From a virus (Duplodnaviria > Heunggongvirae > Uroviricota > Caudoviricetes): a stretch of 64,000 nt of DNA. The notes under the pieces are model-generated. The model was not told the origin of the DNA and searched no databases. It was given only the letters and a program-made list of their open reading frames with translations. The stretch lies in IMG/VR virus record IMGVR_UViG_3300021475_000005; one strand, 5' to 3'. Shown one piece after another: positions 17,446-33,818 of the stretch. How positions within the stretch are numbered: the first letter of the stretch is position 1; each line of letters starts with the position of its first letter. Made by a program: the position numbers and the translations under genes.

Positions 17446-18246
17446 TTAGTGACTCTGACTGTGCAGGAAAGTAGGGAGGTGGTCAAGATTCTCGACATCT
17501 CCTCTCAGTTCCGCAGCAAAAGCCCGTACCCACGCTGCGGTCAACGGTGAACGCACGACATCTTTCTCAGTAAATTCGATAAATGTCATACCCACATCAT
17601 GGCGCTTTCCAATTCCAATAACACGTTCTAGGCCGGAGTTAGGAATATCGATCTGTTCGAGATCGCCGGTAATGACACATTGCGCATCTTCGCCCATGCG
17701 CGTTAAGAAAAGACGTAAGTCGCCGAAGTCCGCATTTTGGGCCTCATCGAGCAGAACGAAAGTTGGAACGTTTCCAAATGTGCGTCCTCTCATATGCTCA
17801 AACGCAGCAATTTCGACCCGACCGTCTTGAAGCCACTGATCGAGGAGGGCCGATCCTACTTCAGCCTTGATCCCGTCGAAAATCGGAATCAACCAAGGGC
17901 GCATTTTGGCGTCGAGTTTACCCGGCAGAAAGCCGAGTTTATGTTGAGGCTTGGAGGCTGTGACGCGAGACAGGACGATCTTGTCGATGACGCCGTCTGC
18001 TAATCTGCGGGCTGCGATCCGGGCTGGAAGAAGTGTCTTACCTGTTCCAGCCGGACCCACAGCAAAAATGCTCTGACCGGCTCTGAGCGCCGCAAGGTAG
18101 AGGCTCTGGTTCTGGCTCCGGGCGGTTAGTGGCCCGGCTGATCCTTGAGCTTTCTTTTGTTTTTCTTTTCGACGTGCTTTACGTGCTTCTGATTTCGAGA
18201 TTGGGCGTGGGGTAATCGGATTTTCAAAAACGAGGTCGTCGTTCAC
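17446..18246 (-). CDS. phoH: PhoH family ATPase
   Basis: GPAGTGKT, LGFLPG, HMRGRTF, LDEAQN, LTRMGE, ITGDLEQID, DVVRS. Confidence 0.95.
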   Translation of the reverse strand: MNDDLVFENPITPRPISKSEARKARRKEKQKKAQGSAGPLTARSQNQSLYLAALRAGQSIFAVGPAGTGKTLLPARIAARRLADGVIDKIVLSRVTASKPQHKLGFLPGKLDAKMRPWLIPIFDGIKAEVGSALLDQWLQDGRVEIAAFEHMRGRTFGNVPTFVLLDEAQNADFGDLRLFLTRMGEDAQCVITGDLEQIDIPNSGLERVIGIGKRHDVGMTFIEFTEKDVVRSPLTAAWVRAFAAELRGDVENLDHLPTFLHSQSH

Positions 18247-18268
18247 TTAGTTCCCCGAAGGTCTCTGG

Positions 18269-18478
18269 TTATGAGGGCTCCTGAAGAATCTGATTTACCC
18301 TCTTGAGACCTGCGTTGAGATTAGAGAGGGATTTGGTCAGTGCCACCACGCTGGTAGCATTCAGTGCACCCGAAAGTAATGTCATGAAATCATCTGCCTC
18401 GATTTGCAGAGATGTTTGGATTTCCTCAAGAACTGTTTCGTTTGAAAGCGTTTCTTTTAGTGCAGCGTTTTGAACCAC
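18269..18478 (-). CDS. Hypothetical protein
   Basis: 69-aa ORF in operon orientation. Confidence 0.5.
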   Translation of the reverse strand: MVQNAALKETLSNETVLEEIQTSLQIEADDFMTLLSGALNATSVVALTKSLSNLNAGLKRVNQILQEPS

Positions 18479-18569
18479 AACTAGCCCTTTCTCTTCTCTG
18501 CCCCGAGAAAGAACTTTTCATGTCCGACGACTGCGAGCAAGAGGCTTTGCCTCCGCGCACAAAATAAAT

Positions 18570-18914
18570 TTAACGATGTGGCTTATCCTGTTTGGTATCG
18601 AGAAGATCGCGAATCTGACGAAGGAGATCAGTCTCATTCTTCATCCAGTCGCGGAGATCGGATGTCTGCGCTTCGAGCGTGCTGACGCGGGGTGCCAACT
18701 TCGCATCTGTTAGTTCATCCACACGGGCACTCAGGACAGCGTAACGTGATTCGTTCTGACCGTATAGACCGGCGGTGCCGAGCAAGAACGAAATCACAAT
18801 CGCCACATGTCCGAGATTCAAAGACCAATCAAAAGTTGGTCCTCTATGTTTGTGATGGTGCGAAGACGTATCCGCAGCATCAATTTCGTCGTCGAAGTTG
18901 ACCAATGTCTTCAC
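18570..18914 (-). CDS. Hypothetical membrane-anchored coiled-coil protein
   Basis: One TM segment (LNLGHVAIVISFLLGTAGLYG) followed by heptads. Confidence 0.6.
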   Translation of the reverse strand: MKTLVNFDDEIDAADTSSHHHKHRGPTFDWSLNLGHVAIVISFLLGTAGLYGQNESRYAVLSARVDELTDAKLAPRVSTLEAQTSDLRDWMKNETDLLRQIRDLLDTKQDKPHR

Positions 18915-19089
18915 TCGCGCGGGGATGAATCAATCTGGTCGGGTCCAGAGTTCGACACATACTTATGCCCCCGGCGCAAGTATTGTTTCGTTCGCGCAAG
19001 TTACTTTAGAGAGGGAATGAAGTCAAGAATTCCCCATTGATACAGTAAGTTGCATGGTTAATAGGAGGATTGGAACTGTGTGTCAAGGG

Positions 19090-19236
19090 CAAAATAAAAG
19101 CCCCATGGGGAGGAAACCCACGGGGCTTTCGTTAACAGCGTACAGATGAGCCCAAGCACGGGCTGCTTCGATCAGGAGAAAAAGGCCGCGCTGGGATTGC
19201 GGCTCAACACGGCCTTCTCCCGTACTAGTCGAAGGA
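19090..19236 (-). ncRNA. Candidate small structured RNA
   Basis: Own TTGACA(19271-19266)-17-TTATCC promoter, long irregular hairpin and terminator; no convincing ORF. Confidence 0.45.
19091..19129 (-). terminator. Intrinsic terminator at the end of the tRNA region
   Basis: AAAGCCCCGUGGG...AUGGGGCUUUUAUUUU on the minus strand. Confidence 0.8.
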
Positions 19237-19272
19237 CGATCAGGATAAGCAATCTTTCTGTGGGGTGTCAAG

Positions 19273-19350
19273 TGGACTCGCTACCGAGGCTCGAACTCGG
19301 ATCGTGAAGACTTCGGAGGTCAACGTTCTATCCATTTGAACTATAGCGAG
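19273..19350 (-). tRNA. tRNA-Arg(CCG)
   Basis: Cloverleaf, anticodon loop CUCCGAA, encoded CCA. Confidence 0.85.
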
Positions 19351-19354
19351 AAGG

Positions 19355-19429
19355 TGGCAGTCCCAGACGGATTCGAACCGCCGACCATTCGTTTAGAAGA
19401 CGAAGGCTCTTCCGCTGAGCTATGGGACT
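19355..19429 (-). tRNA. tRNA-Arg(UCU)
   Basis: Loop CUUCUAA, CCA. Confidence 0.92.
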
Positions 19430-19441
19430 ATGCACATTAAG

Positions 19442-19530
19442 TGGCACTGACGGCGAGATTCGAACTCGCAATGTGGTTTCCCACTCCAGATTCGTAGTCT
19501 GGTGCCTTGATCCAGTTAGACTACGTCAGT
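19442..19530 (-). tRNA. tRNA-Arg(ACG) with long variable arm
   Basis: Loop CUACGAA; V-arm GUGG-GAAA-CCAC; CCA. Confidence 0.88.
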
Positions 19531-19567
19531 GTATTATGTATACGGATAATCCGTACACTGATTAAAA

Positions 19568-19644
19568 TGGCTCCTGTTGCAAGGCTCGAACTTGCCGCGA
19601 TCTGATTAACAGTCAGATGTCCACACCCGGTGCACTTAACAGGA
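19568..19644 (-). tRNA. tRNA-Asn(GUU)
   Basis: Loop CUGUUAA, CCA. Confidence 0.9.
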
Positions 19645-19675
19645 ATAGTGAGATGACATATCTCACAGATTGATT

Positions 19676-19750
19676 TGGATCAAGGAGTAGGATTCGAACC
19701 CACGTTGCCGACGTTCAATGCGTCGTGTCCTACCGCTAGACGATCCTTGA
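19676..19750 (-). tRNA. tRNA-Gln(UUG), A33 variant
   Basis: Loop CAUUGAA, CCA. Confidence 0.85.
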
Positions 19751-19755
19751 AAATT

Positions 19756-19831
19756 TGGCTCACCCTCTTCGATTCGAACGAAGAGCCTCCAGATTCAGAG
19801 TCTGTTGCGCTACCAGTTGCGCCAAGGGTGA
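19756..19831 (-). tRNA. tRNA-Gln(CUG)
   Basis: Loop CUCUGAA, CCA. Confidence 0.9.
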
Positions 19832-19832
19832 A

Positions 19833-19907
19833 TGGTAGTTCCTCGGAGAATCGAACTCCGCTAAATCTCCGTGTAAAGGAGGCGACCAGCCACTGGCCCA
19901 AGGAACT
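19833..19907 (-). tRNA. tRNA-Val(UAC)
   Basis: Loop UUUACAC, CCA. Confidence 0.88.
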
Positions 19908-19941
19908 AAACTTTTTTACTCCTTTCGAGTAAACGTTGATT

Positions 19942-20016
19942 TGGTTGTCCCTGATGGAGTTGAACCATCTACCTAACGGTTATCAGCCGTTTGCTCTACC
20001 GATGAGCTAAGAGACA
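19942..20016 (-). tRNA. tRNA-Ile(GAU)
   Basis: Loop CUGAUAA, CCA. Confidence 0.92.
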
Positions 20017-20021
20017 TCATT

Positions 20022-20096
20022 TGGTTGGCCTACCGAGAATCGAACTCGGGCATAAACGCTCATCAGGCGCTTGCTGTACCACTTAGCTATAGGCCG
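20022..20096 (-). tRNA. tRNA-Ile(GAU), second copy, G37 variant
   Basis: Loop CUGAUGA, CCA. Confidence 0.85.
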
Positions 20097-20101
20097 AAAT
20101 T

Positions 20102-20176
20102 TGGTATCTCTTACTGGAATCGAACCAGTTCATCACGGCATGTCATACCGGTGCTCTCCCACTGAGCTAAAGAGAT
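20102..20176 (-). tRNA. tRNA-Val(GAC)
   Basis: Loop AUGACAU, CCA. Confidence 0.85.
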
Positions 20177-20177
20177 A

Positions 20178-20252
20178 TGGTCGATCTGGATGGTCTCGCA
20201 CCACCGACACGAAGATTTTCAGTCTCCTGCTCTACTCCTGAGCTACAGATCG
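20178..20252 (-). tRNA. tRNA-Phe(GAA)
   Basis: Loop CUGAAAA, T-loop UGCGAGA, CCA. Confidence 0.88.
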
Positions 20253-20345
20253 ATATTCGTTACTTCTCATCTCCATAATTCGCCGTTTCTGGCGAGTTAA
20301 CGTCTGTTTCGTTTGTAACTCGTCGTCTTTGACGAGTTCTGCTTT

Positions 20346-20431
20346 TGGTGGGAGTGGAAGGAATTGCACCTACTCACCCGTGGGGACTGATTTTACAGAC
20401 CAGCGCCGCTCTCTAACTCGACCGCACTCCC
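20346..20431 (-). tRNA. tRNA-Tyr(GUA)
   Basis: Loop CUGUAAA, long V-arm, CCA. Confidence 0.88.
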
Positions 20432-20444
20432 ATGGTCCAAATGC

Positions 20445-20483
20445 AAAAAGGCCCGCTCGGTGTTTACCGGGCGGGCCTTTCGG
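20445..20483 (-). terminator. Attenuator terminator ahead of the Tyr-to-Arg tRNA operon
   Basis: AAAGGCCCGCCCGGU-AAAC-ACCGAGCGGGCC-UUUUU; its 5' arm is also complementary to leader-ORF nt 20542-20527. Confidence 0.85.
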
Positions 20484-20503
20484 AACCTTGAGAGCGACTG
20501 GGT

Positions 20504-20593
20504 TTACCAGATATCCTGCTCACGCGCCGAAGACCCGCCCGGAATATACCGGACGAAGTTGACTTGCTGCACGCGGTTGAATCTCTTGCTCAT
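20504..20593 (-). CDS. Leader peptide A (MSKRFNRVQQVNFVRYIPGGSSAREQDIW), putative tRNA-operon attenuator
   Basis: ATG is 6 nt after the -10 box (leaderless-type); codons 4-17 match the downstream tRNA set. Confidence 0.8.
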   Translation of the reverse strand: MSKRFNRVQQVNFVRYIPGGSSAREQDIW

Positions 20594-20599
20594 GATGTT

Positions 20600-20628
20600 T
20601 GTGTACCTGATTCGATTTTGAATGTCAA
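20600..20628 (-). promoter_or_regulatory. Sigma70-type promoter of leader A / tRNA operon
   Basis: TTGACA-17 nt-TACACA. Confidence 0.8.
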
Positions 20629-20684
20629 GGATACCCAATATGGGGTGGTGAGTCAGTTTGACTGACTTGACATTCCCAAAACTT

Positions 20685-20890
20685 GTCGGGAGGGCTAGGA
20701 AAGGCCAGAGGCTTTTCATCTGGGCTGTAGCAATCCCAGAACAGCGCTACTCCTGCGCTCCGGCCTATCATAGCCCTCCCGACCTCGGCTTGCGCCGGAC
20801 GCGGATGCCACGCGATCTGGGGAGGCTAGGGGATTCGACAGGTGCGGTCAAGGATCGCGACTTTCGCGTATCTCAGGTACGGGAAAGTCG
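20685..20890 (-). ncRNA. Unidentified structured RNA at the 3' end of the Pro-to-Ser tRNA operon (strand inferred)
   Basis: 13-bp stem 20685-20697/20771-20783 enclosing a multibranch; further hairpins at 20811-20859 and 20858-20890. Confidence 0.5.
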
Positions 20891-20894
20891 TAAA

Positions 20895-20984
20895 TGGCGG
20901 AGAGTTGGCGAACCCGAGTCCCATACCCGTAAAGGTACACAAGGTTTAGCAAACCTGTCCCATCACCTGATGAGTTAACTCTCC
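20895..20984 (-). tRNA. tRNA-Ser(GCU), degenerate T-arm
   Basis: Loop UUGCUAA, long V-arm, CCA. Confidence 0.8.
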
Positions 20985-20989
20985 TAATC

Positions 20990-21079
20990 TGGCGGAGCGC
21001 ACTGAAGTTGCGTCAGAGGCCTTTGCAGGCTCGCGATGCTTTCCAAGCAGGCCGGGCGCGCTCGTCCCGTTTACGCTCC
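20990..21079 (-). tRNA. tRNA-Ser(GGA), degenerate T-loop
   Basis: Loop UUGGAAA, long V-arm, CCA. Confidence 0.8.
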
Positions 21080-21149
21080 AATTTTGCGCGAGATGCCACG
21101 ACGCATCCCTTTCAACCATTCCGGCACGTTGGCCTGCGCTGGTCTTGAC

Positions 21150-21239
21150 TGGAGGAAGGCGGGTGCTGCTGCCGCCCAAGCCGGTTAGGGCTCCATCCGT
21201 TTTCAAAACGGAGTCTAACACTGGTTAGATTCACCTTCC
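21150..21239 (-). tRNA. tRNA-Ser(UGA), degenerate T-loop
   Basis: Loop UUUGAAA, long V-arm, CCA. Confidence 0.8.
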
Positions 21240-21244
21240 GTAAT

Positions 21245-21335
21245 TGGCAGAGAGCGACGGGGATGCTCCGCAAACTTCTCTCGAAGTTCGATCCGCTTTC
21301 GAAACGGTCGCCGTACCTCGACGGCTTCACTCTCT
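21245..21335 (-). tRNA. tRNA-Ser(CGA), degenerate T-loop
   Basis: Loop UUCGAAA, long V-arm, CCA. Confidence 0.8.
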
Positions 21336-21342
21336 GTAAAAA

Positions 21343-21418
21343 TGGTGGACCTTGCCGGACTTGAACCGACCACCCGCTGCTTGCAAAGCAGCCGCTCTCC
21401 CAGATGAGCTAAAGGCCC
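21343..21418 (-). tRNA. tRNA-Ala(UGC)
   Basis: Loop UUUGCAA, G3:U70, CCA. Confidence 0.92.
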
Positions 21419-21424
21419 GTAGCT

Positions 21425-21496
21425 TGGTGGAGTAAATGGGAGTCGCGCCCATCGCAATCGGTTTGCAAGACCAATCTCCGCCCTCGCGGTTACCCC
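21425..21496 (-). tRNA. tRNA-Ala(UGC), second divergent copy
   Basis: Loop CUUGCAA, G3:U70, CCA. Confidence 0.8.
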
Positions 21497-21500
21497 GAAC

Positions 21501-21576
21501 TGGAACTGCGTGTCCGATTTGCACGGACCTCCTCCGCCTTCACAGGGCGGCGACTCGCTTGCTAGTCCTACGCAGC
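21501..21576 (-). tRNA. tRNA-His(GUG)
   Basis: Loop CUGUGAA; G1:U72; no encoded G-1. Confidence 0.85.
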
Positions 21577-21584
21577 ATTTAATT

Positions 21585-21668
21585 TGGTCGCTCTACCAGA
21601 ACTTGCATCTGGAATCCCGAAGGACAACGTTCTCAACGTTGCGCGTCTACTAGTTTCGCCATAGAGCG
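21585..21668 (-). tRNA. tRNA-Leu(GAG)
   Basis: Loop UUGAGAA, V-arm, CCA. Confidence 0.87.
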
Positions 21669-21677
21669 TTATTTTAG

Positions 21678-21760
21678 TGGTGCCTCAACCCAGACTCGAA
21701 CTGGGACGCTTTCGCACTGGGATTTGAAGCCAGCGTGTCTACCATTTCCACCATGGAGGC
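21678..21760 (-). tRNA. tRNA-Leu(CAA)
   Basis: Loop UUCAAAU, V-arm, CCA. Confidence 0.88.
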
Positions 21761-21772
21761 ATATTCGTTATT

Positions 21773-21855
21773 TGGTGCCCAACGTCGGGGTCGAACCGAC
21801 ACCTCAATGAGAACGGGATTTAAAGCCGTCGCGTCTGCCATTCCGCCAGATGGGC
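21773..21855 (-). tRNA. tRNA-Leu(UAA)
   Basis: Loop UUUAAAU, V-arm, CCA. Confidence 0.88.
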
Positions 21856-21896
21856 ATTATAAACTTGTGATCGAGTAGTACGATTCACTTGTAAGT

Positions 21897-21980
21897 TGGT
21901 AGCCCTAGAGGGACTTGCACCCCCACGTCTTTCGACATTGGTTCCTAAGACCAACGCGGCTTCTATTACGCCATAGGGCC
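21897..21980 (-). tRNA. tRNA-Leu(UAG)
   Basis: Loop CUUAGGA, V-arm, CCA. Confidence 0.88.
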
Positions 21981-21985
21981 AAACT

Positions 21986-22073
21986 TGGAGGACTCGGAGA
22001 GAATTGCACTCTCGGTGGCAGTTACGCTAGTGGATTAAGAATCCACGCCCATCGCTTCTCGGGTCACGAGTCC
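21986..22073 (-). tRNA. tRNA-Lys(CUU) with long variable arm
   Basis: Loop UUCUUAA, ~16-nt variable region, CCA. Confidence 0.83.
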
Positions 22074-22091
22074 AAATTATTCAGTATACTG

Positions 22092-22176
22092 AGGATCGGG
22101 TGAGATTTGCACTCACGATGGCATTTCTGCGTGGGTTTAAAAGACCCGTGACTTCGACTACTCTGTCCACCGATCC
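22092..22176 (-). tRNA. tRNA-Lys(UUU) with long variable arm; CCA not fully encoded
   Basis: Loop CUUUUAA; acceptor GGAUCGG/CCGAUCC. Confidence 0.82.
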
Positions 22177-22191
22177 ATCTCAGTATAAAAT

Positions 22192-22267
22192 TGGTTCCGC
22201 TTATCTGACTTGCACAGATCATCTCTCGTTTACGAGACGAGCGCATCGCTACCAATGCTTAAGCGGA
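22192..22267 (-). tRNA. tRNA-Thr(CGU)
   Basis: Loop CUCGUAA, CCA. Confidence 0.87.
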
Positions 22268-22272
22268 TCAAC

Positions 22273-22347
22273 TGGTGCCTCTTGAACGACCTGCCCGTTC
22301 CTCTCACCCCTACCAAAGGTGCTCATCGCTTTCTATGATTAAAAGGC
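22273..22347 (-). tRNA. tRNA-Thr(GGU), degenerate T-loop
   Basis: Loop UUGGUAG, CCA. Confidence 0.78.
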
Positions 22348-22348
22348 G

Positions 22349-22424
22349 TGGTGCCGATAGACAGGATCGAACTGCCTCCCTGACTGATTACAAAACAGTT
22401 GCGCTCCACTAGCGCCATATCGGC
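22349..22424 (-). tRNA. tRNA-Thr(UGU)
   Basis: Loop UUUGUAA, CCA. Confidence 0.88.
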
Positions 22425-22513
22425 AAAAAACAATTGCATGATTCGGGTAGTCTCGCCTTCTTCGCGTCCCGATAGTTTCAGCCATCACCGGCTTACGGAG
22501 ATCATGCACAAAA

Positions 22514-22601
22514 TGGTCAGAGTGGTGTGATTCGAACACACGATGCCTTTCGGCTCCTGCTCCCAAAGCAGGCGGAATGAGCCAGCCTATCCGACACTCT
22601 G
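22514..22601 (-). tRNA. tRNA-Pro(UGG) with long variable arm
   Basis: Loop UUUGGGA; V-arm GCC-GAAA-GGC; C1:G72, A73. Confidence 0.87.
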
Positions 22602-22648
22602 ATAATTCTAATATCATCATAGCGAATCTCCGCTTACGATGATTGAAT

Positions 22649-22724
22649 TGGTCTGCCTATCAGGATTTGAACCTGAATCACCAGCTTCCGAGGCCGGGGC
22701 TCTACCAAGTTAAGCTATAGACAG
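22649..22724 (-). tRNA. tRNA-Pro(CGG)
   Basis: Loop CUCGGAA, CCA. Confidence 0.87.
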
Positions 22725-22813
22725 TCGTTCTTCGTCTCCTGTTGGAGCCGGACCTGTTTCTGGAGCGGGGATCAGAAGGTTTGGTCGCGACTCGTGTTAG
22801 CCGCGAGAGGGAC

Positions 22814-22927
22814 TTAGTCCCGTAAGCGGCTTGAGAGTGGTGCGGTCGCTGGCGTTGTCAGCACGAGCGAATGCAAACTGGCGGAGGCCAGTTTGGGGCT
22901 CGACTTGAGTGACAACGTTGCGAACAT
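22814..22927 (-). CDS. Leader peptide C (MFATLSLKSSPKLASASLHSLVLTTPATAPLSSRLRD), putative tRNA-operon attenuator
   Basis: Lies between a promoter and the first tRNA; 30 of residues 3-33 are A/T/L/S/K/P/H, the isotypes of the downstream operon. Confidence 0.8.
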   Translation of the reverse strand: MFATLSLKSSPKLASASLHSLVLTTPATAPLSSRLRD

Positions 22928-22967
22928 TTTCAAACCTTTAAGTGGCGCGAGTCGCGCCGGAAGTCTT

Positions 22968-22996
22968 TGTGTCTCATATCCAGACTCGTATGTCAA
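22968..22996 (-). promoter_or_regulatory. Promoter of leader C / tRNA operon
   Basis: TTGACA-17 nt-GACACA, with GAGTC in the spacer. Confidence 0.7.
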
Positions 22997-23145
22997 CAAA
23001 GAAATTTCAAAATCCACTTTCCGGTTTCGCCGGGTTGCCGCGATTAACAAAAGGACGCCCGCTTTTGCAGGCGTCGTGTCGCTTTCTTTATGGCAATGCA
23101 TCCGAATTCCCGGATGAGCGGCTCATATGAGTAAAGGAGATCAAA

Positions 23146-23442
23146 ATGGACGATGATTGGGACAATGAAGAATGGGAACGCTGGATCGCGCTCACCGATG
23201 CGGAACAGGAGCAGGAACTCCGCGTGGCTGAGGCGGAATATATGGAATGGTATAGATCGTTGACGCCAAAGCAGCGCTACCATTATGAAGTCCGAGGACT
23301 TCTTCGACTCATCGTCAAGGAACGAAAAGGCTTAAAGCTCTTTCCCGAAATGCGAGATTTGATGGTTCGAAGAGCCCAGAAATTACTTTGGGCGCATCGG
23401 CATCATCGTCAAACCGGCATCTATCCTTCGTTCGACGACTAG
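23146..23442 (+). CDS. Hypothetical protein
   Basis: AAGGAGA RBS; 98 aa. Confidence 0.7.
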   Translation: MDDDWDNEEWERWIALTDAEQEQELRVAEAEYMEWYRSLTPKQRYHYEVRGLLRLIVKERKGLKLFPEMRDLMVRRAQKLLWAHRHHRQTGIYPSFDD

Positions 23443-23774
23443 CGGCAAAATACAGCATCAGTCGTCACGCCGACCTCGCCATCAATTTCTTCCAGCGCCG
23501 TGTCCGGAATTTCCGGCATGGGAACTGTGCCTCGAAGTGCGTGATAACTGTCAGCATGAAAAAACAACTGCCCATCCGTTATATTGTAATGGCAGTATCC
23601 ACGTTTCAAGTGCTGACCGAATGACGGACTGTACGTTGGTTTATCATCAGTGCCTGATCGTGCCCAGCGCCCTGTCGGGATAACATGCAGTTCTTCACAA
23701 GCTGGACACCAGTGATATAAATTGCCGCCAAACTCGGCGGTCCAAGGAGCAAGTTTCATTTTATTCCCACACAA
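23439..23774 (-). CDS. DUF6527-like zinc-binding protein
   Basis: HWCPACEELH...PTYSPS...CHYNITDG...DSYHALRG. Confidence 0.7.
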   Translation of the reverse strand: MCGNKMKLAPWTAEFGGNLYHWCPACEELHVIPTGRWARSGTDDKPTYSPSFGQHLKRGYCHYNITDGQLFFHADSYHALRGTVPMPEIPDTALEEIDGEVGVTTDAVFCR

Positions 23775-23776
23775 TG

Positions 23777-23802
23777 AAAAGGCCCGGATCGCTCCGGGCC
23801 TT
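23777..23802 (-). terminator. Intrinsic terminator
   Basis: AAGGCCCGGA-GCGA-UCCGGGCCUUUU. Confidence 0.75.
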
Positions 23803-23879
23803 GTTCGGCTACTCGCCGCCAGCCTGCTTTCACAGACACAAAGATCGCCAGATTTTCATCTGTCGCAGGACGATCTTAT

Positions 23880-24089
23880 TTACGCAGGTGCCAGTTTAGC
23901 CATCGCCTTACCAGCACGTTTCAATAATCCAGTCATTTGAGCGTTCGTATCTGGATTACGAGAAATTGTTCCATCCATGTGTCCCTGATGTAACTTCATC
24001 GCGGCTTGAAGGGCTGCTGTTCCAGCTTGATGTTCTTGCTGGAGATCAGGCCCGATAGAAGCCTGAAGATCAGAGATACCTTGGTCCAA
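23880..24089 (-). CDS. Hypothetical protein
   Basis: 69 aa; last gene of a tightly packed small-gene operon. Confidence 0.6.
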   Translation of the reverse strand: MDQGISDLQASIGPDLQQEHQAGTAALQAAMKLHQGHMDGTISRNPDTNAQMTGLLKRAGKAMAKLAPA

Positions 24090-24091
24090 TT

Positions 24092-24214
24092 TTATTTGCC
24101 CTTCTTCTTGGGCATCGGCATTGCCTTCTTTCCGCCAGCCGGTTTCTTGCCTGCACCTTTCTTCTTACCAAAGGGAGGTGCTGCACCGGGGAATGCAGGT
24201 TTCTTCGAGGCCAT
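24092..24214 (-). CDS. Small Lys/Pro/Gly-rich basic protein (40 aa)
   Basis: Below the track cutoff; MASKKPAFPGAAPPFGKKKGAGKKPAGGKKAMPMPKKKGK, with AAGGA RBS. Confidence 0.7.
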   Translation of the reverse strand: MASKKPAFPGAAPPFGKKKGAGKKPAGGKKAMPMPKKKGK

Positions 24215-24244
24215 TCGGGATTTCCTTTTGTTGGTTGAGGGTAG

Positions 24245-24466
24245 TTACATGCCCGGCGTGTCTGCGTCCGGGTCCATGTCGGGATCGCACATCGCCTGAT
24301 TGGGATGTGCATTATTATTCGGGTCCATCAATTCTCCGGTAGGCCATGCGCCACGAGGCGCAGAAGTTGGCGGACCAGCCTGATTGTTGGTGATGACGCC
24401 AACAAGCGCCTTCGAATTCGGGTGCTTCGTCGAAGCAGCCTTATTCTTTCGCATATTGTACTTCAT
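24245..24466 (-). CDS. Hypothetical protein
   Basis: 73 aa; abuts the stop of the upstream gene. Confidence 0.55.
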   Translation of the reverse strand: MKYNMRKNKAASTKHPNSKALVGVITNNQAGPPTSAPRGAWPTGELMDPNNNAHPNQAMCDPDMDPDADTPGM

Positions 24467-24679
24467 TTATTTTGGAGCCTTTCCATCGCGCTTCTTGTGG
24501 AAGCCTTCCAGAGTTTCGGCGAGACGCGCTTCTTTGCCGATCTTACCCGGTTCCGCAGCCGCCTTTTTGAGTTCGTCCTGCGGAATTTTCTGGCCTTGTG
24601 GAATTCCCAATGCACGATGCAGCGCGCCTTTGTCGCCGCCAATCGCTTTCTGGATAAAATGTTTTGCTTTCTTTGCCAT
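24467..24679 (-). CDS. Small basic phage protein
   Basis: MAKKAKHFIQKAIGGDKGALHRALGIPQGQKIP; GAGG RBS. Confidence 0.75.
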   Translation of the reverse strand: MAKKAKHFIQKAIGGDKGALHRALGIPQGQKIPQDELKKAAAEPGKIGKEARLAETLEGFHKKRDGKAPK

Positions 24680-24737
24680 GACGGCGCTACCTCAATAGGG
24701 ACCTGAGAAGCGCGGATTGTCTCGCTTATGACACAAC

Positions 24738-24756
24738 GAGTCAAGAATTCCGACTC
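24738..24756 (-). promoter_or_regulatory. Recurrent GAGTC-N9-GACTC / CTTGAC promoter motif (representative copy)
   Basis: Similar copies at 5893, 14980, 19020, 33093, 35975, 43834, 47755, 58916 and 63709, all upstream of minus-strand genes. Confidence 0.7.
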
Positions 24757-24815
24757 ATTGCCGGAGTCAAGTTACAGAGATGAAATCTAATATATGAAAT
24801 TTATAATATATGAGA

Positions 24816-24891
24816 TGGCGCACCTAACGAGATTCGAACTCGCAGCGACTTGATCGACAATCAAGCTTCATTCCCAGATGAACCTAGATGC
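24816..24891 (-). tRNA. tRNA-Asp(GUC)
   Basis: Loop UUGUCGA, CCA. Confidence 0.87.
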
Positions 24892-24912
24892 ATTATCTCA
24901 CATATAATAAAT

Positions 24913-24989
24913 TGGTCATGCCAACGAGATTCGAACTCGTGCCACAAGGATTGAAAGTCCCGTATCCTAGACCGCTAGACCATGGCATG
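24913..24989 (-). tRNA. tRNA-Glu(UUC)
   Basis: Loop CUUUCAA, CCA. Confidence 0.87.
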
Positions 24990-24991
24990 AT

Positions 24992-25071
24992 TGGTCGGGT
25001 CAACGGGGAACGATCCCGCATAGCAAGCTTGAGAGGCAAGCTGTCCTAGTCCTGATTTAGACGATGACCCG
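24992..25071 (-). tRNA. tRNA-Glu(CUC), weak anticodon stem
   Basis: Loop CUCUCAA, CCA. Confidence 0.75.
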
Positions 25072-25113
25072 TAGAGAGGAGTTTCGGACGGGTCGAAGAT
25101 TTACGTCGCGCGC

Positions 25114-25221
25114 TTAAGCGGCGACGCGCATATCTCGGCCCGTCGAACGTTCAAGTTCGCGGGCAACGGTGCCGGAGAGGCACACGTGCATGAGTGCGCG
25201 GATGTGATTCGAGATAACCAT
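25114..25221 (-). CDS. Leader peptide B (MVISNHIRALMHVCLSGTVARELERSTGRDMRVAA)
   Basis: Leaderless-type ATG after TTGACA(25255-25250)-17-GATGAA; precedes the Glu/Glu/Asp tRNAs; alternative RNA pairings present. Confidence 0.55.
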   Translation of the reverse strand: MVISNHIRALMHVCLSGTVARELERSTGRDMRVAA

Positions 25222-25337
25222 GCGCTTTCATCTCATTTTCAGACGGCCTTGTCAAGAATGCCTCGATAATATAGACGCCATATAGGAAAGCGGCTGAAAT
25301 CCGGCACTACCGGTCATAAAAAGCGACAGATGCCATA

Positions 25338-25366
25338 TTGACAGCCCCATTCCACTCCATTACACC
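25338..25366 (+). promoter_or_regulatory. Promoter of the RHH/OmpA/ABC operon
   Basis: TTGACA-17 nt-TACACC. Confidence 0.7.
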
Positions 25367-25393
25367 GCATCCCATAAAGAAGGGTCTCACTAC

Positions 25394-25570
25394 ATGGCGA
25401 AAAAACCGCCGAAGAAGAAAGAGTCCAGACTAGCTATGGCGTTGATGCAGAAGGATCGGGCGCTGATCGATAAAGCCGCTGCCCTTCTCGGCCTTCCACC
25501 CTCTGTCTGGGGACGTGCAATCATTCTCAAAGAGGCGGCAAAAGTCGTCGAAGCGGCAGGCGCAAAATGA
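25394..25570 (+). CDS. Ribbon-helix-helix (DUF1778-like) DNA-binding protein, 58 aa
   Basis: Below the track cutoff; MAKKPPKKKESRLAMALMQKDRALIDKAAALLGLPPSVWGRAIILKEAAKVVEAAGAK; ATGA overlap with the next gene. Confidence 0.7.
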   Translation: MAKKPPKKKESRLAMALMQKDRALIDKAAALLGLPPSVWGRAIILKEAAKVVEAAGAK

Positions 25571-26253
25571 CCAAACACCCGAGCATGTTGGAAAAACTGG
25601 GACTCGTCGAAAGCGACGAGCCGGAACTGCCACATGATCTTCCTCATGCGCCGCCACCCGCGCAGCCCTTGATGCAACCAAATACAATGGTGCCTCCTCC
25701 GGCTGCGGTCACTGGCGCACAACCTCCTCCGCAATTTACTTCAAGCGCTCCTTTATATACCGCGCCTGCGGTCCTGACCGAAGCCGACCAGAAGCAACTG
25801 CAAGCAATGACGACGCAAGTCTACGCGATGCCTTCTACATACGTTATCTTCCAACGTGTGCGTGAGAGCTTGGGTAATATCTCGGATGTCAATATGATAT
25901 TCAAGGTGTTGTCGGCGGCAAACCCGGGCGTCACAACCGATAAGGTTGTTGCAGATATCGAAACTCATCTTGGGATCGTCGGTACGCTGCGGGCTCGCTT
26001 CGATCAGCAGATGAAGGACGCACGTGCTGCAAAGATTGATGGTCCAACGCAAGGGATTGCCGATCTCACTGCGGCGAATGCGGCTGCCGTTCAGCAGATC
26101 GCCGACCGCACAGCCAAGATCGCGCAGATGCAGACAGATATTGCGAATGCCGACCGGGCTCTCCAAGATGCGGCGGTACATTTCAAACTGGTTGAAGATC
26201 AGTTGAACGCGCCTCTGCTCCAAACCAAACAGCTTCTCTCCACCGCTCACTAA
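25567..26253 (+). CDS. Coiled-coil protein with Pro-rich N-terminus
   Basis: 228 aa; LEKLGLVES start and C-terminal heptads. Confidence 0.75.
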   Translation: MTKHPSMLEKLGLVESDEPELPHDLPHAPPPAQPLMQPNTMVPPPAAVTGAQPPPQFTSSAPLYTAPAVLTEADQKQLQAMTTQVYAMPSTYVIFQRVRESLGNISDVNMIFKVLSAANPGVTTDKVVADIETHLGIVGTLRARFDQQMKDARAAKIDGPTQGIADLTAANAAAVQQIADRTAKIAQMQTDIANADRALQDAAVHFKLVEDQLNAPLLQTKQLLSTAH

Positions 26254-26262
26254 GGAATTGAT

Positions 26263-27285
26263 ATGAGCAACGATCTGGTCTCGACGCCGTGGACTCCACC
26301 GGAGTCCAAAGTCATGCAGTCAATCGTCAAATGGGGAGGTTTGGCTGCGCTCGTAATTGGAGGTTTCATTGCCTTCAATACGTTTGCGCCAACGGTCGTG
26401 ACTGCTGTCACGTTGCTCAATCTTATCTTGCAAGACGCCACGCACATGATCATTTCCGGAGTCGGGTTGATCATCGTGGCTTGGCTGGCGAGAGAAACAA
26501 TCAGCCCGGCTGGCAGTATCAATCGCCTTCTCCGGATGCCGTATTGGATCATGGTCAACGGTTTGACCAGATTCTTTTTGAACATCGATCCACTTTCGCC
26601 GATCACGGAACGGTTGCAAGCCGTCCGCGCCGATCAGGCGCAGTTTCAAAAGCAGTTCGAAACACTCGATGGCCTGATTTCAAGTCTGCACGATAAGGCG
26701 GCGAACTATCGCGATCAGAGTGCGAAAGCCCAACGGCTTGGAATCGCTGCAACCAAGCAGGGTCAAAAAGCTGCGGCTGAAGTCGCCATTTCAAATTTCG
26801 GTCGATTCAAAGATGCTGCTGATTCTTATGAGGCGACGGCACAACGGCTTGATCCAATCCGCAAGACTTTTCAGAACATTTCGCAGGCGTGCGATATCAC
26901 GGCCCAGAAACTTGAAACTGAGCGCACTCTCCTTGCCGACAAATGGCAAGTACAGAAAGCAGTGGGTTCTGCTACGAAGGCCGCGAGTCGTATTCTCGGT
27001 CGTTCTAAGACGCAGGTCTGGGATATGGCACAACAGGCGGAGACGCTCATCGATACCAAATATTCCGAAGAGCTTGGGCATCTCGATCACCTGAAAAATT
27101 ACGCGGAACCGTTCTTGCAATCGATTGACGTGGAAAATGCGTCATACAGCGAAGAAATGTTCCAGCAAGTTCAGACAGGGGGAGCCAAACTACTCGAATC
27201 AACGGCTGCGACACCACTTCCTCTGGCCCCTCCCGTTGAGGCAAGTACATCTTCGGATATGCTTGCCGGATTCATCCGTTCGTAG
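26263..27285 (+). CDS. Membrane-anchored coiled-coil (PspA/IM30-like) protein
   Basis: Two N-terminal TM helices followed by a long helical coiled coil. Confidence 0.7.
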   Translation: MSNDLVSTPWTPPESKVMQSIVKWGGLAALVIGGFIAFNTFAPTVVTAVTLLNLILQDATHMIISGVGLIIVAWLARETISPAGSINRLLRMPYWIMVNGLTRFFLNIDPLSPITERLQAVRADQAQFQKQFETLDGLISSLHDKAANYRDQSAKAQRLGIAATKQGQKAAAEVAISNFGRFKDAADSYEATAQRLDPIRKTFQNISQACDITAQKLETERTLLADKWQVQKAVGSATKAASRILGRSKTQVWDMAQQAETLIDTKYSEELGHLDHLKNYAEPFLQSIDVENASYSEEMFQQVQTGGAKLLESTAATPLPLAPPVEASTSSDMLAGFIRS

Positions 27286-27304
27286 ATTTAATCAGGAGAC
27301 GACA

Positions 27305-29071
27305 ATGGCATTGAAAATTACACGCGCAGGCTTTCTTGTCATCGCCGTCGTGGGCGTCGCGGCCCTCGGCGCGCTCGGCAAGTTCGCCATCAACAAAGGC
27401 ATTCTCGGCAAACCGACAGACGTTGTGTCGTCGGTTCCGACAGTCACGACAATTCAACACTTTACTGTGTCGGATTCTGCGGCGACTTATTCCCTTCCCG
27501 TATCTGCCAAACCAACTTCCATGCCGACATGTCCGGTCATGGAAGAACTGGCATGGAATGCCATGGGCGCACTCAACGTCGCCAATGGCGGTGCAGAGAC
27601 CGACCGCGATTCCATGGTCGCCAAATATACGAATGGCGGCTGCATCTCGCTCAAGCGTCAAGACGATTATGGGCAGATGGAAACCAATCTTGCAGCTTTC
27701 GTCAGTTCCGATGGAGCGAAAGGCGACGCGTTTATCGCTATTATGGGCGACGCCTATCCGTATGTCGCTGCCGCGCTTCAGAAATTGATTCCGGGACAGT
27801 TTGAAGCCATCGGCGCTATCGGCTTCTCGGATGGCGAAGACAAGTGCATGCTTCCGGGCGAGGTTGCCAAGGACCCGCAAAAGGCTCGCGGAACGCTCGT
27901 CGCTGCTGTGGCACGTGACGGCGACTGGAACATTTGCGTGAAGTGGGCATCGGACAATGGAATTCCGATCAATGTCGATCAGAAGACTTATGACCCGACC
28001 GCAATGAACTTCATGGATGTGGATGCTTTCACGACCGCCGACGACAAACTCATTGCAGGCGCTTGCGAAGATCGTACGGTTGTGTCGAACGGTCTGACGC
28101 ATGGTACGAAGAAAGTCTGCGTCAACGGCGTAGCGACATGGACACCGGGCGACGTGGATGTCATCAAGAAATATCCGGGCAGCATCGTCGGCGTTGCATC
28201 GACACATGACTATGCAGGGCAGATGCCAGCCCTCATCATCGGTGCGAAAACATGGATGGCGGCGCACCACGATTACGTGGTCGGCTTGCTACGGGCTTCC
28301 GACCGGGGCGCGATGGCGATCCGGACCAGTGAAGGTGGCTTGATGCAAATGGGCGCAGCAAACGCTCAAATCTTCAAGGAGCAAACGCCAGACTATTGGG
28401 CGCACTATTTCAAAGGCGAAACTGTCTCACACGCTGGCGATATGGTGAACCTCGGCGGTTCGAAAGTGATCACGCTTCAAGAAGAACGCGATTACTTCGG
28501 CATGCGCGCTGGCACCGAAAACATTTACGCATCGGTCTATCGCGTGTTCGCAAACTATGATGGGACGTTCTACCCGACCCTGTATCCGAAATCTGGATCG
28601 GATTCTATTCCGTCATACGAAGAGGTCGTCGATACCAGCTATCTCGCCGATGCTCTTGCCGGAATTCCCGAAACTCAAGGCGCAGTCACTGCTGCACTGG
28701 CAGTGTCGGCTCCTATCACGCAGACGGTCTCCAAGAAGTCTTGGCACATCGAGTTTGACTCCGGTCAGGCAACGATCAAGCCGGATTCGATGAATCAGCT
28801 TTATCAGATCGAAGATACGGCGGCGATGACCAATCTCCGTATTCGCTTGGATGGCTATACGGACAGCACGGGGTCGGCGACGCGTAACATTCCGCTCTCG
28901 GAAGCGCGGGCTCAGGCCGTGGCTAACTGGTTGACGACCAAAGCTCCGAATAACTTCCCGGCTACGCGTATGGAAGCCCGTGGGCACGGTTCTGACGATC
29001 CGCTGTGCTCTGATAACACGGCAGATTGCCGCGCTCAGAACCGTCGCGTTGAAATCAGCCTAGGATCATAA
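27305..29071 (+). CDS. ABC substrate-binding-like protein fused to a C-terminal OmpA peptidoglycan-binding domain
   Basis: N-terminal TM anchor; ATWTPGD binding-protein motif; IEFDSGQATI...DGYTDSTG...LSEARAQAV...NRRVEI; AGGAG RBS at 27305. Confidence 0.85.
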   Translation: MALKITRAGFLVIAVVGVAALGALGKFAINKGILGKPTDVVSSVPTVTTIQHFTVSDSAATYSLPVSAKPTSMPTCPVMEELAWNAMGALNVANGGAETDRDSMVAKYTNGGCISLKRQDDYGQMETNLAAFVSSDGAKGDAFIAIMGDAYPYVAAALQKLIPGQFEAIGAIGFSDGEDKCMLPGEVAKDPQKARGTLVAAVARDGDWNICVKWASDNGIPINVDQKTYDPTAMNFMDVDAFTTADDKLIAGACEDRTVVSNGLTHGTKKVCVNGVATWTPGDVDVIKKYPGSIVGVASTHDYAGQMPALIIGAKTWMAAHHDYVVGLLRASDRGAMAIRTSEGGLMQMGAANAQIFKEQTPDYWAHYFKGETVSHAGDMVNLGGSKVITLQEERDYFGMRAGTENIYASVYRVFANYDGTFYPTLYPKSGSDSIPSYEEVVDTSYLADALAGIPETQGAVTAALAVSAPITQTVSKKSWHIEFDSGQATIKPDSMNQLYQIEDTAAMTNLRIRLDGYTDSTGSATRNIPLSEARAQAVANWLTTKAPNNFPATRMEARGHGSDDPLCSDNTADCRAQNRRVEISLGS

Positions 29072-29106
29072 TCTCTTTCTCACTGTGTCTTAAAAAGGAG
29101 TTGTCC

Positions 29107-29307
29107 ATGACTGCATTCAAACAGAAACTCGTTACTGCCGTCGTAGGTGCGATGGCAGGGCGCAAATGCGATTGCGAAGGCTGCAATTGCCACTATGGGG
29201 AGGCGGACGCCGAAAAGCTCGTTTCCGCCATCGCGCCAATCGTTGCCGACGAATGCGCAAAGGAAGTTCACGACGATCTTCTGGCTCGCCTTCGCCTGCA
29301 CGCCTGA
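29107..29307 (+). CDS. Hypothetical protein
   Basis: AAGGAG RBS; CDCEGCNCH. Confidence 0.55.
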   Translation: MTAFKQKLVTAVVGAMAGRKCDCEGCNCHYGEADAEKLVSAIAPIVADECAKEVHDDLLARLRLHA

Positions 29308-29348
29308 CAATACGGCGAGGAAAAGCATAAATGAGTACGTGCCGCGAA

Positions 29349-31851: not shown

Positions 31852-31860
31852 GAGAAAGCT

Positions 31861-33041: not shown

Positions 33042-33115
33042 GGAAATTTCCTTAAGAGATTATGAACTGCAAGATGACATTTAAGACAGATAGAGTCAAG
33101 AATGATGACTCATGA

Positions 33116-33760: not shown

Positions 33761-33770
33761 ATTACCTCAT

Positions 33771-33796: not shown

Positions 33797-33818
33797 TTCT
33801 CCGACTGAAGGGTCTGTC

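Follow-up and report, generated by a model that had tools for sequence, protein, structure and literature searches.

The stretch of DNA analysed here (64,000 nt, referred to below as the window) belongs to the 156-kb genome of an uncultured giant phage and carries 33 tRNA or tRNA-like genes, all on the minus strand, arranged in three blocks with non-overlapping amino acid sets (Table 1). According to ARAGORN with default settings, 25 tRNAs are located at 19273-24989, and relaxed settings add Lys(CTT), a second Ala(TGC), Ser(CGA), and a Glu(CTC)-like gene. A search for a 7-bp acceptor stem with an encoded CCA end, followed by folding, adds cloverleaves for Ser(TGA), Ser(GGA), Ser(GCT), and Thr(GGT). 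These 8 additional genes, however, are not scored above threshold by Rfam. Each block is preceded by a TTGACA promoter with a 17-nt spacer and by a short ORF (29, 37, and 35 codons for blocks 1, 2, and 3, respectively). Thus, the count of 33, the partition into three blocks, and the promoter-ORF arrangement given in the earlier note are confirmed.

Table 1. Coordinates of the promoters, leader ORFs, RNA structures, and tRNA genes of the three blocks in the window.
Feature	Position	Strand	Description
Block 3 promoter, −35 hexamer	25250-25255	−	TTGACA; 28 nt from the −35 hexamer to the ATG
Block 3 −10-like hexamer	25227-25232	−	
Block 3 leader ORF	25114-25221	−	35 codons; GAA-CTT-GAA at 25150-25158, a GAT inside 25129-25137
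Block 3 hairpin	25088-25143	−	5' arm 25132-25143 (inside the ORF), 3' arm 25088-25100; inner hairpin 25105-25129 with the stop codon in its loop; no U-tract
Block 3 tRNAs	24816-25071	−	Glu(CTC)-like 24992-25071, Glu(TTC) 24913-24989, Asp(GTC) 24816-24891
Block 2 promoter, −35 hexamer	22991-22996	−	TTGACA
Block 2 −10-like hexamer	22968-22973	−	
Block 2 Shine-Dalgarno-like AAAGG	22935-22939	−	
Block 2 leader ORF	22814-22927	−	37 codons
Block 2 structured spacer	22725-22821	−	Stop-codon hairpin 22809-22821, alternative helices, last hairpin 22733-22751 without U-tract
Block 2 tRNAs	20895-22724	−	18 genes: Pro x2, Thr x3, Lys x2, Leu x4, His, Ala x2, Ser x4
Block 1 promoter, −35 hexamer	20623-20628	−	TTGACA; 29 nt from the −35 hexamer to the ATG
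Block 1 −10-like hexamer	20600-20605	−	
Block 1 leader ORF	20504-20593	−	29 codons; sensor codons 4-17 at 20543-20584
Block 1 segments 1 and 2	20534-20555	−	Segment 1 20549-20555, segment 2 20534-20542; anti-antiterminator hairpin, whose 5' arm and loop hold the last sensor codons
Block 1 intrinsic terminator	20439-20477	−	Segment 3 20467-20477, segment 4 20450-20460, U-tract 20439-20449
Block 1 tRNAs	19273-20431	−	12 genes: Tyr, Phe, Val, Ile, Ile, Val, Gln, Gln, Asn, Arg, Arg, Arg

According to amino acid composition, the leaders of blocks 1 and 2 match their own tRNA sets. In leader 1, codons 4-17 (14 of 14) are drawn only from Arg, Phe, Asn, Val, Gln, Tyr, and Ile, with all seven residues used. 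In leader 2, 30 of 31 residues at positions 3-33 belong to the block 2 set (Ala, Thr, Leu, Ser, Lys, Pro, and His), and 31 of 36 in total (binomial tail 6.6e-8). In a six-frame scan of the whole genome, the block 1 run ties for the longest and is the only one using all seven residues, while the block 2 run of 19 is the longest for its alphabet. Leader 3, in contrast, has only 3 Glu or Asp residues in 34, which is no enrichment. The earlier note also described the two large leaders as codon-matched to their operons. At the codon level, however, matching beyond amino acid composition is not significant: leader 1 covers 11 of 11 anticodons (synonymous-shuffle P = 0.07) and leader 2 covers 15 of the 16 included in the test (P = 0.54), or 16 of 17 when Thr(GGT), detected later, is counted (only Pro(CGG) is missed).

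To test whether leader content tracks block tRNA content, the window was compared with related phages, and the result is strongly positive. The phage is a distant relative of phiCbK-like Caulobacter and Brevundimonas phages, with a portal protein 57% identical to theirs and syntenic arrays. Nine Dolichocephalovirinae phages and the window were scored on all three blocks, and a tenth phage, C1, was examined for its block 1 and block 2 leaders only. They keep the same three leader types with the residue order permuted, and the block 1 leaders of 10 phages use the same seven-residue alphabet in different orders. The block 3 leader of the window is homologous to the 20-21-codon leaders of phiCbK, Colossus, Kabachok, Gurke, Bajun, and BL9, which share a conserved Glu...Glu...Gly-Arg-Asp pattern. 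These block 3 leaders, however, are also not enriched in Glu or Asp (3 of about 20 residues, 2 of 20 in BL9; P about 0.4 to 0.8).

Changes in array content are followed by the leaders as well. In the Bertelyviruses C1 and BL9, tRNA-Trp sits at the end of block 2 and the block 2 leader has a Trp codon, which is present in none of the 8 other block 2 leaders. Erythrobacter phages L02 and XM05 and Sphingobium phage Lacusarx sort their tRNAs into three different blocks (Pro/Met/Val/Ile/Ala/Asn, Lys/Gly/Asp/Glu/Arg/Phe, and Ser/Tyr/Leu/Thr/His/Gln/Cys/Trp). In L02, each leader consists of 74-85% own-block residues (binomial tails from 6e-4 down to 8e-8). For the leaders of this group denoted X1, X2, and X3, the X2 and X3 leaders of XM05 and Lacusarx match similarly (58-90%), whereas X1 of XM05 matches only 40% against an incompletely detected tRNA set, and no X1 leader was identified in Lacusarx. 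The correct leader-to-block assignment ranks first of 6 permutations in all 11 three-block phages. As a negative control, the related Ruegeria phages DSS3P8 and RpAliso have unsorted arrays and no such leaders.

These observations bear on the possibility that the terminators are constitutive insulators or partial stops between operons, with short ORFs that are untranslated or encode unrelated micropeptides and a compositional match arising by coincidence or as a by-product of RNA structure. Gene callers do annotate several of the ORFs as hypothetical proteins, and the ORF tails are clearly shaped by the RNA helices. However, the alphabet is kept while the residue order is permuted, two different amino acid partitions are each mirrored by their own leaders, and a Trp codon appears together with tRNA-Trp. 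In addition, the start codon keeps a fixed leaderless distance from the promoter (28-33 nt) in the block 1, block 3, and X3 leaders where a TTGAC was found. For the block 1 leaders of the 10 phages this distance is 28-31 nt, with no room for a 5' UTR. Together with the covariation of antiterminator and terminator described below, this makes such a reading very unlikely.

The alternative RNA pairings reported in the earlier note are strong and conserved for block 1, where the leader is followed by a textbook four-segment attenuator. Across the 10 phages, the hairpin of segments 1 and 2 is 90% paired with 3 compensatory pairs, the antiterminator formed by segments 2 and 3 is 97% paired with 2 compensatory pairs (against 27-52% when the register is slid), and the terminator is 97.7% paired with 3 compensatory pairs. 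When folding was performed with a ribosome mask held at codon 12 or earlier, segment 2 paired with the 5' arm of the terminator in all 10 phages. As for block 2 of the relatives, a ribosome at the stop codon gives the terminator in phiCbK, Rogue, Kabachok, and Gurke, and a ribosome stalled 12 codons before the stop gives the antiterminator in these four and in Bajun, where no terminator formed at the stop.

For blocks 2 and 3 of the window, in contrast, alternative pairings are present but ambiguous: neither last hairpin is followed by a U-tract, and masked folds of block 2 show no clean switch. The last block 2 hairpin is homologous to the phiCbK block 2 terminator, which does have a U-tract, and the block 3 hairpin matches the architecture of the relatives, where a short U-rich tail follows. 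Tentatively, the leaders of these two blocks may be real sensors whose output is not intrinsic termination but Rho-dependent termination, RNase processing, or sequestration of the 5' end of the first tRNA. The block 2 spacer is richer in C than in G (32 and 21, respectively, in 89 nt), the block 3 segment around 25084-25099 can pair either with the ORF or with the first bases of the Glu(CTC)-like gene, and the longest own-alphabet run in the genome argues that the block 2 leader is still in use. However, homologous hairpins in relatives do carry U-tracts, the host and its termination requirements are unknown, and there is no direct evidence for Rho or any RNase.

Contigs from a soil metatranscriptome library, identical to the window, join each leader to the first tRNAs of its block (20265-20563, 21758-22948, and 24826-25200). 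This evidence is weak, since contigs prove neither RNA origin nor a single transcript.

The same logic is known from multivalent leader-peptide attenuators of enterobacterial amino acid operons (ilvGMEDA for Ile/Leu/Val and thr for Thr/Ile), in which a short promoter-proximal ORF carries codons for several amino acids and ribosome position selects among mutually exclusive anti-antiterminator, antiterminator, and terminator helices. Here, however, the controlled genes are tRNAs rather than biosynthetic enzymes, so the loop closes on tRNA supply rather than amino acid supply, seven or eight amino acids are sampled mostly once to three times each instead of in runs of one to three amino acids, the block 1 and block 3 mRNAs are leaderless, and the system lies on a phage genome. 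There is no sequence similarity (the Rfam Thr_leader model scores 15.8 bits against a threshold of 55). The trpL, hisL, leuL, and pheL attenuators share the four-segment logic, with regulatory codons in and just upstream of segment 1 and, as in block 1, an intrinsic terminator with a U-tract, but sense a single amino acid with tandem codons. In block 1 the stop codon lies about 30 nt beyond segment 2, inside its own small hairpin, so termination relies on the 1:2 hairpin re-forming behind the ribosome rather than on a ribosome parked on segment 2. The pheST (pheM leader) attenuator and T-box riboswitches also control the decoding machinery according to the state of the cognate tRNA, but regulate aminoacyl-tRNA synthetases and not tRNA genes; T-boxes bind uncharged tRNA directly and need no ORF, and no T-box match was found in the window. 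Leaderless polycysteine short ORFs in mycobacteria (bioRxiv 10.1101/834739) likewise act as ribosome-read sensors at the 5' end of an operon, but that system is bacterial, senses a single amino acid, and controls protein-coding genes. No published account of such attenuators for tRNA operons was found in literature searches.

The earlier note proposed that the phage tests a panel of codons and transcribes only the replacement tRNA module that is needed, with anti-phage anticodon nucleases as the destroyers of host tRNAs. This proposal is supported in that leader content tracks block tRNA content, whereas depletion by host defence remains a guess. Single codons per isoacceptor suit an all-or-none loss better than a graded shortage, and all 11 block 1 anticodons are represented. 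The genome also carries RNA-repair or quality-control genes (a Ro60/TROVE protein and a weak YrlA-like RNA match), while phage L02 has an RNA-splicing ligase annotated next to its array and, according to its authors, a CCA-adding enzyme (PMC9127768). However, nothing here links the leaders to any nuclease, isoacceptor coverage is what amino acid composition alone predicts, and demand-driven feedback explains the same anatomy without invoking defence, which leaves the alarm reading possible but rather unlikely.

Our best reading, held with fair confidence although translation of the leaders, ribosome stalling, and a response of read-through to stalling are inferred without experimental evidence, is that each block is a separate operon whose transcript begins with a short sensor ORF, and that ribosome-mediated attenuation turns on a tRNA operon when its codons are decoded slowly. 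Most sensor codons occur only once or twice, which gives low sensitivity in classical attenuation models unless depletion is severe, the block 1 and block 3 ORFs rely on leaderless initiation in an unknown host, and stalling would also result from amino acid starvation, which extra tRNA cannot cure. In block 1, a ribosome running through the 14 sensor codons without delay would allow segment 1 to re-pair with segment 2, so that segments 3 and 4 form the terminator and RNA polymerase stops in front of tRNA-Tyr. Vice versa, a ribosome held on any sensor codon because its charged tRNA is scarce would cover segment 1, segment 2 would pair with segment 3, and the 12 tRNA genes would be transcribed. 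Blocks 2 and 3 carry sensors homologous to those of the relatives, although their output step in the window is unclear. Because the output is the tRNAs that read the sensor codons, the circuit in this reading is a negative feedback that matches tRNA supply to decoding demand, block by block, and the same design is present in the Caulobacter phage phiCbK.

ARAGORN at default settings finds 25 tRNA genes between positions 19273 and 24989, all on the minus strand, and relaxed settings add Lys(CTT), a second Ala(TGC), Ser(CGA), and a Glu(CTC)-like gene. A further search for 7-bp acceptor stems followed by a discriminator base and an encoded CCA, with subsequent folding of the hits, gives clean cloverleaves for Ser(TGA), Ser(GGA), Ser(GCT), and Thr(GGT). 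The total is 33, which is the number given in the earlier note. Rfam, however, does not score these 8 unusual genes above its threshold, so their function as tRNAs is inferred from the fold alone. The genes fall into 3 blocks, each preceded by TTGACA, a 17-nt spacer, a hexamer, and a short ORF. A fourth group has no leader and starts about 25 nt after the stop of an AAA_28-domain gene; no leader is found in front of the Trp/Gly blocks of phages PW and Gurke either. In addition, 2 structured stretches inside or after block 2 are not tRNAs by any test used here.

Coordinates of the tRNA blocks, leaders, RNA elements, and neighboring features (window positions unless stated otherwise)
Feature	Position	Strand	Description
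Block 1	19273-20431		Tyr, Phe, Val, Ile, Gln, Asn, Arg
Block 2	20895-22724		Pro, Thr, Lys, Leu, His, Ala, Ser
Block 3	24816-25071		Glu, Asp
Fourth tRNA group	33822-34591	minus	Trp, Cys, Gly and others
Block 1 leader ORF	20504-20593		29 codons
Block 2 leader ORF	22814-22927		37 codons
Block 3 leader ORF	25114-25221		35 codons
Block 1 segment 1	20549-20555		last sensor codons
Block 1 segment 2	20534-20542		
Block 1 segment 3	20467-20477		5' arm of terminator
Block 1 terminator 3' arm	20450-20460		
Block 1 U-tract	20439-20449		
Block 1 terminator with U-tract	20439-20477		10-bp GC-rich stem
Block 2 last hairpin	22733-22751		short, no U-tract
Stop-codon hairpin, leader 1	20498-20510		
Stop-codon hairpin, leader 2	22809-22821		
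Stop-codon hairpin, leader 3	25105-25129		
C-rich motif, block 2 spacer	about 22770-22790		
RNA-library contig, block 1	20265-20563		across the terminator into tRNA-Tyr
RNA-library contig, block 2	21758-22948		
RNA-library contig, block 3	24826-25200		
RNA-library contig, between blocks 3 and 2	23678-24690		
PhoH gene	17446-18246		follows block 1
Structured stretch	22425-22513	minus	89 nt, 7-bp terminal helix, no CCA end
Structured stretch	20690-20894	minus	spacer of about 200 nt with a long GGAGGGC...GCCCTCC helix
Region between blocks 3 and 2	23439-24690	minus	
DUF6527 protein gene	23439-23774		
Short Lys-rich ORF	24092-24214		
Short Lys-rich ORF	24467-24679		
AAA_28-domain gene	34615-35142		precedes the fourth tRNA group
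Ro60/TROVE plus vWA protein gene	47889-49262	minus	Pfam TROVE, E = 9e-16
YrlA-like (Y RNA-like) match	50590-50707	minus	34.8 bits, gathering score 69
XM05 locus (L029), X3 operon	L029 positions 360-410		terminator after the first tRNA, Ser(CGA)

According to composition, the leaders of blocks 1 and 2 match their own blocks strongly. Codons 4-17 of the block 1 leader are 14 consecutive codons from exactly the 7 amino acids of that block, and each of its 11 distinct anticodons can read at least one of them. In the block 2 leader, 31 of the 36 residues after the initiator Met come from the 7 amino acids of block 2 (binomial tail 6.6e-8), and its codons are readable by 16 of the 17 anticodons, with only Pro(CGG) being missed. 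In a six-frame scan of the whole 156-kb genome, the block 2 run of 19 is the longest such run anywhere, while the block 1 run of 14 ties for the longest and is the only one that uses all 7 residues. That the 2 record runs sit directly in front of the matching tRNA blocks is far from chance. The block 3 leader, however, has only 2 Glu codons and 1 Asp codon in 34 residues, and thus no enrichment is observed. Moreover, once the amino acid sequence is fixed, the choice among synonymous codons is not significantly tuned to the isoacceptors of the block (P = 0.07 and 0.54 for blocks 1 and 2, respectively). The match is solid at the amino acid level and only suggestive at the isoacceptor level.

Block 1 has the full anatomy of a classical attenuator. 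Segment 1 pairs with segment 2, segment 2 is perfectly complementary to segment 3, and segment 3 is the 5' arm of a GC-rich terminator that is followed by a U-tract and ends 8 nt before tRNA-Tyr. When the nascent RNA is folded with a ribosome held at codon 8 or codon 12, in both cases segment 2 pairs with segment 3 to form the antiterminator, whereas without a ribosome the RNA folds into 1:2 plus the terminator. Folds with a masked ribosome agree in 10 phages. A T-box riboswitch is not supported, because no T-box match is found in 18000-36000 at E up to 0.1 or in 20432-21345 at E up to 10. Over the leaders Rfam returns only tRNA and chance sub-threshold matches.

The window, which is part of a 156-kb IMG/VR record estimated to be 59% complete, has tail, portal, and other phage genes. 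Its portal protein is 57% identical over 91% of its length to that of the phiCbK-like giant siphophages of Caulobacter and Brevundimonas, the Dolichocephalovirinae. Their tRNA arrays are syntenic with the window, in the order Trp-Gly-Gly, Glu-Asp, Pro...Ser, Tyr/Phe...Arg, and PhoH follows block 1 in PW, Gurke, and Bajun, as it does in the window. The AAA_28-domain gene sits before tRNA-Trp, where the annotation of Bajun places a NadR-like gene. In the Colossus-, Kabachok-, and Bajun-type phages a peptide deformylase gene lies upstream of the block 1 leader promoter, directly in Bajun and 1 or 2 short genes away in the others. However, the GC content is about 50% against the 62-66% reported for phiCbK-like phages, and megablast of the array against cultured phages gives no match. 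It is therefore a distant relative, not a member of a named genus. Searches for related loci with 3 neighboring proteins yield either no relatives or relatives without nearby tRNAs, a back-translated pattern of leader 1 has no hits in IMG/VR, and a pattern for the block 1 attenuator finds only 3 cultured phiCbK-like genomes.

Every lineage examined carries the 3 leader types (phiCbK, Rogue, BL10, Karma, Colossus, PW, Kabachok, Gurke, Bajun, BL9, and, for the block 1 and block 2 leaders, C1). Several of these leaders are annotated as hypothetical proteins, e.g., phiCbK gp335, and in phiCbK the depositors had already annotated a rho-independent terminator immediately before each of the 3 blocks. 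The block 1 leaders keep the same 7-residue alphabet but arrange it in different orders, which argues for selection on codon content, not on a peptide. In an alignment of the block 1 element from 10 phages, the 1:2 hairpin, antiterminator 2:3, and terminator 3:4 have 90%, 97%, and 97.7% of cells paired, with 3, 2, and 3 pairs changed on both sides, respectively; for the antiterminator the value falls to 27-52% when the register is slid. In BL9 and Bajun a G-to-A change in segment 2 is matched by a C-to-T change in segment 3. As for initiation, the ATGs of the window's blocks 1 and 3 lie 29 and 28 nt after the -35 hexamer, and in the block 1, block 3, and X3 leaders where a TTGAC was found this distance is 28-33 nt (X1-X3 denote the 3 blocks of the Erythrobacter and Sphingobium phages considered below). 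This is the spacing at which transcription begins at the A of the AUG, i.e., the geometry of leaderless mRNAs. Block 2 leaders, in contrast, have 5' UTRs of roughly 35 to 100 nt, and in the window an AAAGG lies 7 nt before the block 2 ATG.

In the relatives, a chain of alternative helices after the block 2 leader ends in a canonical terminator. With a ribosome at the stop codon the terminator forms in phiCbK, Rogue, Kabachok, and Gurke, but not in Bajun, and with the ribosome stalled 12 codons before the stop an upstream segment captures the 5' arm of the terminator in all 5. An earlier stall, at codon 20, however, leaves the terminator intact in phiCbK and Rogue. In the window, the homologous last hairpin has no U-tract, and the masked folds give no clean switch. 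A C-rich motif (CCCAAA, followed a few bases later by CAGCAG in the Colossus- and Kabachok-type phages) recurs between the block 2 leader and its terminator in relatives and in the window, and could be a Rho loading site or part of the switch. Regarding block 3, in all lineages the 5' arm of the terminal hairpin lies inside the ORF on the Gly-Arg-Asp codons, the stop codon sits in the apical loop, and the Glu codons lie 15-25 nt upstream. A ribosome held on Glu or Asp would therefore physically cover that arm, although in the window no U-tract follows. The stop codon of each leader sits in the loop of its own small hairpin, whose stem sequence differs between phages while the hairpin is kept; it might control the timing of ribosome release or simply act as a spacer. 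Thus, block 1 is regarded as a complete attenuator, and blocks 2 and 3 of the window as homologous sensors whose output step is unresolved.

The earlier note suggested testing whether leader content tracks the tRNA content of the block in related phages, and 3 independent observations indicate that it does. First, in the Bertelyviruses C1 and BL9 tRNA-Trp has moved from the Trp-Gly block to the end of block 2, and their block 2 leader contains a Trp codon in the middle of the sensor, while none of the 8 other block 2 leaders has one. Second, Erythrobacter phages L02 and XM05 and Sphingobium phage Lacusarx, which are more distant CbK-like phages (the 2 Erythrobacter portals are 37-38% identical to that of the window, and the L02 authors name Lacusarx as its closest relative), sort their tRNAs quite differently: Pro, Met, Val, Ile, Ala, and Asn in X1; Lys, Gly, Asp, Glu, Arg, and Phe in X2; and Ser, Tyr, Leu, Thr, His, Gln, Cys, and Trp in X3. 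Apart from the 2 X1 cases noted here, each block is preceded by a promoter and a leader written in its own set, including the rare residues Cys, Trp, and Met where the block holds those tRNAs. In L02 the own-block fractions are 0.74-0.85 against at most 0.26 for other blocks, with binomial tails from 6e-4 down to 8e-8, and the X2 and X3 leaders of XM05 and Lacusarx score 0.58-0.90. X1 of XM05, however, scores only 0.40, against a tRNA set that ARAGORN detected incompletely, and no X1 leader was identified in Lacusarx. In the X3 operon of XM05 the canonical terminator lies after the first tRNA rather than directly after the leader, and the attenuator may therefore include that tRNA. Third, in all 11 phages with 3 leaders the true leader-to-block assignment scores best of the 6 possible assignments, although in this scoring the Kabachok block 2 row used a wrong frame and the Colossus block 1 tRNA set is truncated by the locus end, and these 2 rows should be ignored. 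As a negative control, the Ruegeria phages DSS3P8 and RpAliso have unsorted arrays interspersed with genes and no matched leaders, and matched leaders are likewise absent from a 271-kb IMG/VR relative.

A soil metatranscriptome library holds contigs identical to the window that join each leader to the first tRNAs of its block, and a second study holds a piece of the block 2 leader. The soil contigs begin 11-30 nt downstream of the 3 predicted start sites and leave the stretches just upstream of the block 2 and block 3 promoters uncovered, while a further contig lies between blocks 3 and 2. However, contigs cannot prove RNA origin, transcript ends, or a single molecule, so these data are only compatible with expression and some read-through.

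The best-supported reading is ribosome-mediated attenuation, in which translation, stalling, and regulated read-through are inferred rather than demonstrated. According to this reading, the default state is termination, and a ribosome delayed on any sensor codon frees the antiterminator, so that the block is transcribed. Since the product is the tRNAs that read the sensor, the loop regulates tRNA supply against decoding demand, separately for each block. The selective driver might be late-infection demand, codon-usage mismatch with the host, or tRNA cleavage by host defenses, between which the sequence does not decide. The last option, which corresponds to the inference of the earlier note, is attractive but remains a tentative and rather unlikely possibility. 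In that case the leaders would be a modular alarm against tRNA-targeting defenses, each polling single codons for every isoacceptor of its block, and the phage would transcribe only the replacement tRNA module whose host counterparts have been cleaved, which would make tRNA arrays an inducible counter-defense rather than a constitutive codon-usage aid. The genome also encodes a Ro60/TROVE plus vWA protein about 1.3 kb from a YrlA-like match, which is below the gathering score and overlaps a tRNA-like hit; together they look like a phage-borne Ro/Y-RNA quality-control module.

The closest known systems are the multivalent ilv and thr leaders and the trp, his, leu, and phe attenuators. The pheST leader and the T-boxes are close in the sense that they control translation machinery, and the mycobacterial polycysteine short ORFs in being leaderless. 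None of these controls tRNA genes, and none samples 7 or 8 amino acids. Full-text literature searches found no account of attenuated tRNA operons, and neither the phiCbK genome paper nor the L02 paper mentions one.

Why phages carry tRNA genes and how those genes are controlled are long-standing open questions, and here the regulatory logic can be read from the sequence. The same elements are present in phiCbK and other cultured phages of Caulobacter crescentus, a well-developed genetic model, which makes the hypothesis directly testable, and the leaders, as a natural set of multi-codon sensors, could serve as reporters of isotype-specific tRNA availability. It appears that tRNA operons are switched on by slow decoding of exactly the codons they serve. 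Leader-peptide attenuation would extend from amino acid and synthetase genes to tRNA genes, and to phages, and the design would explain why these arrays are sorted by amino acid, since each sensor can only report on the codons it contains.
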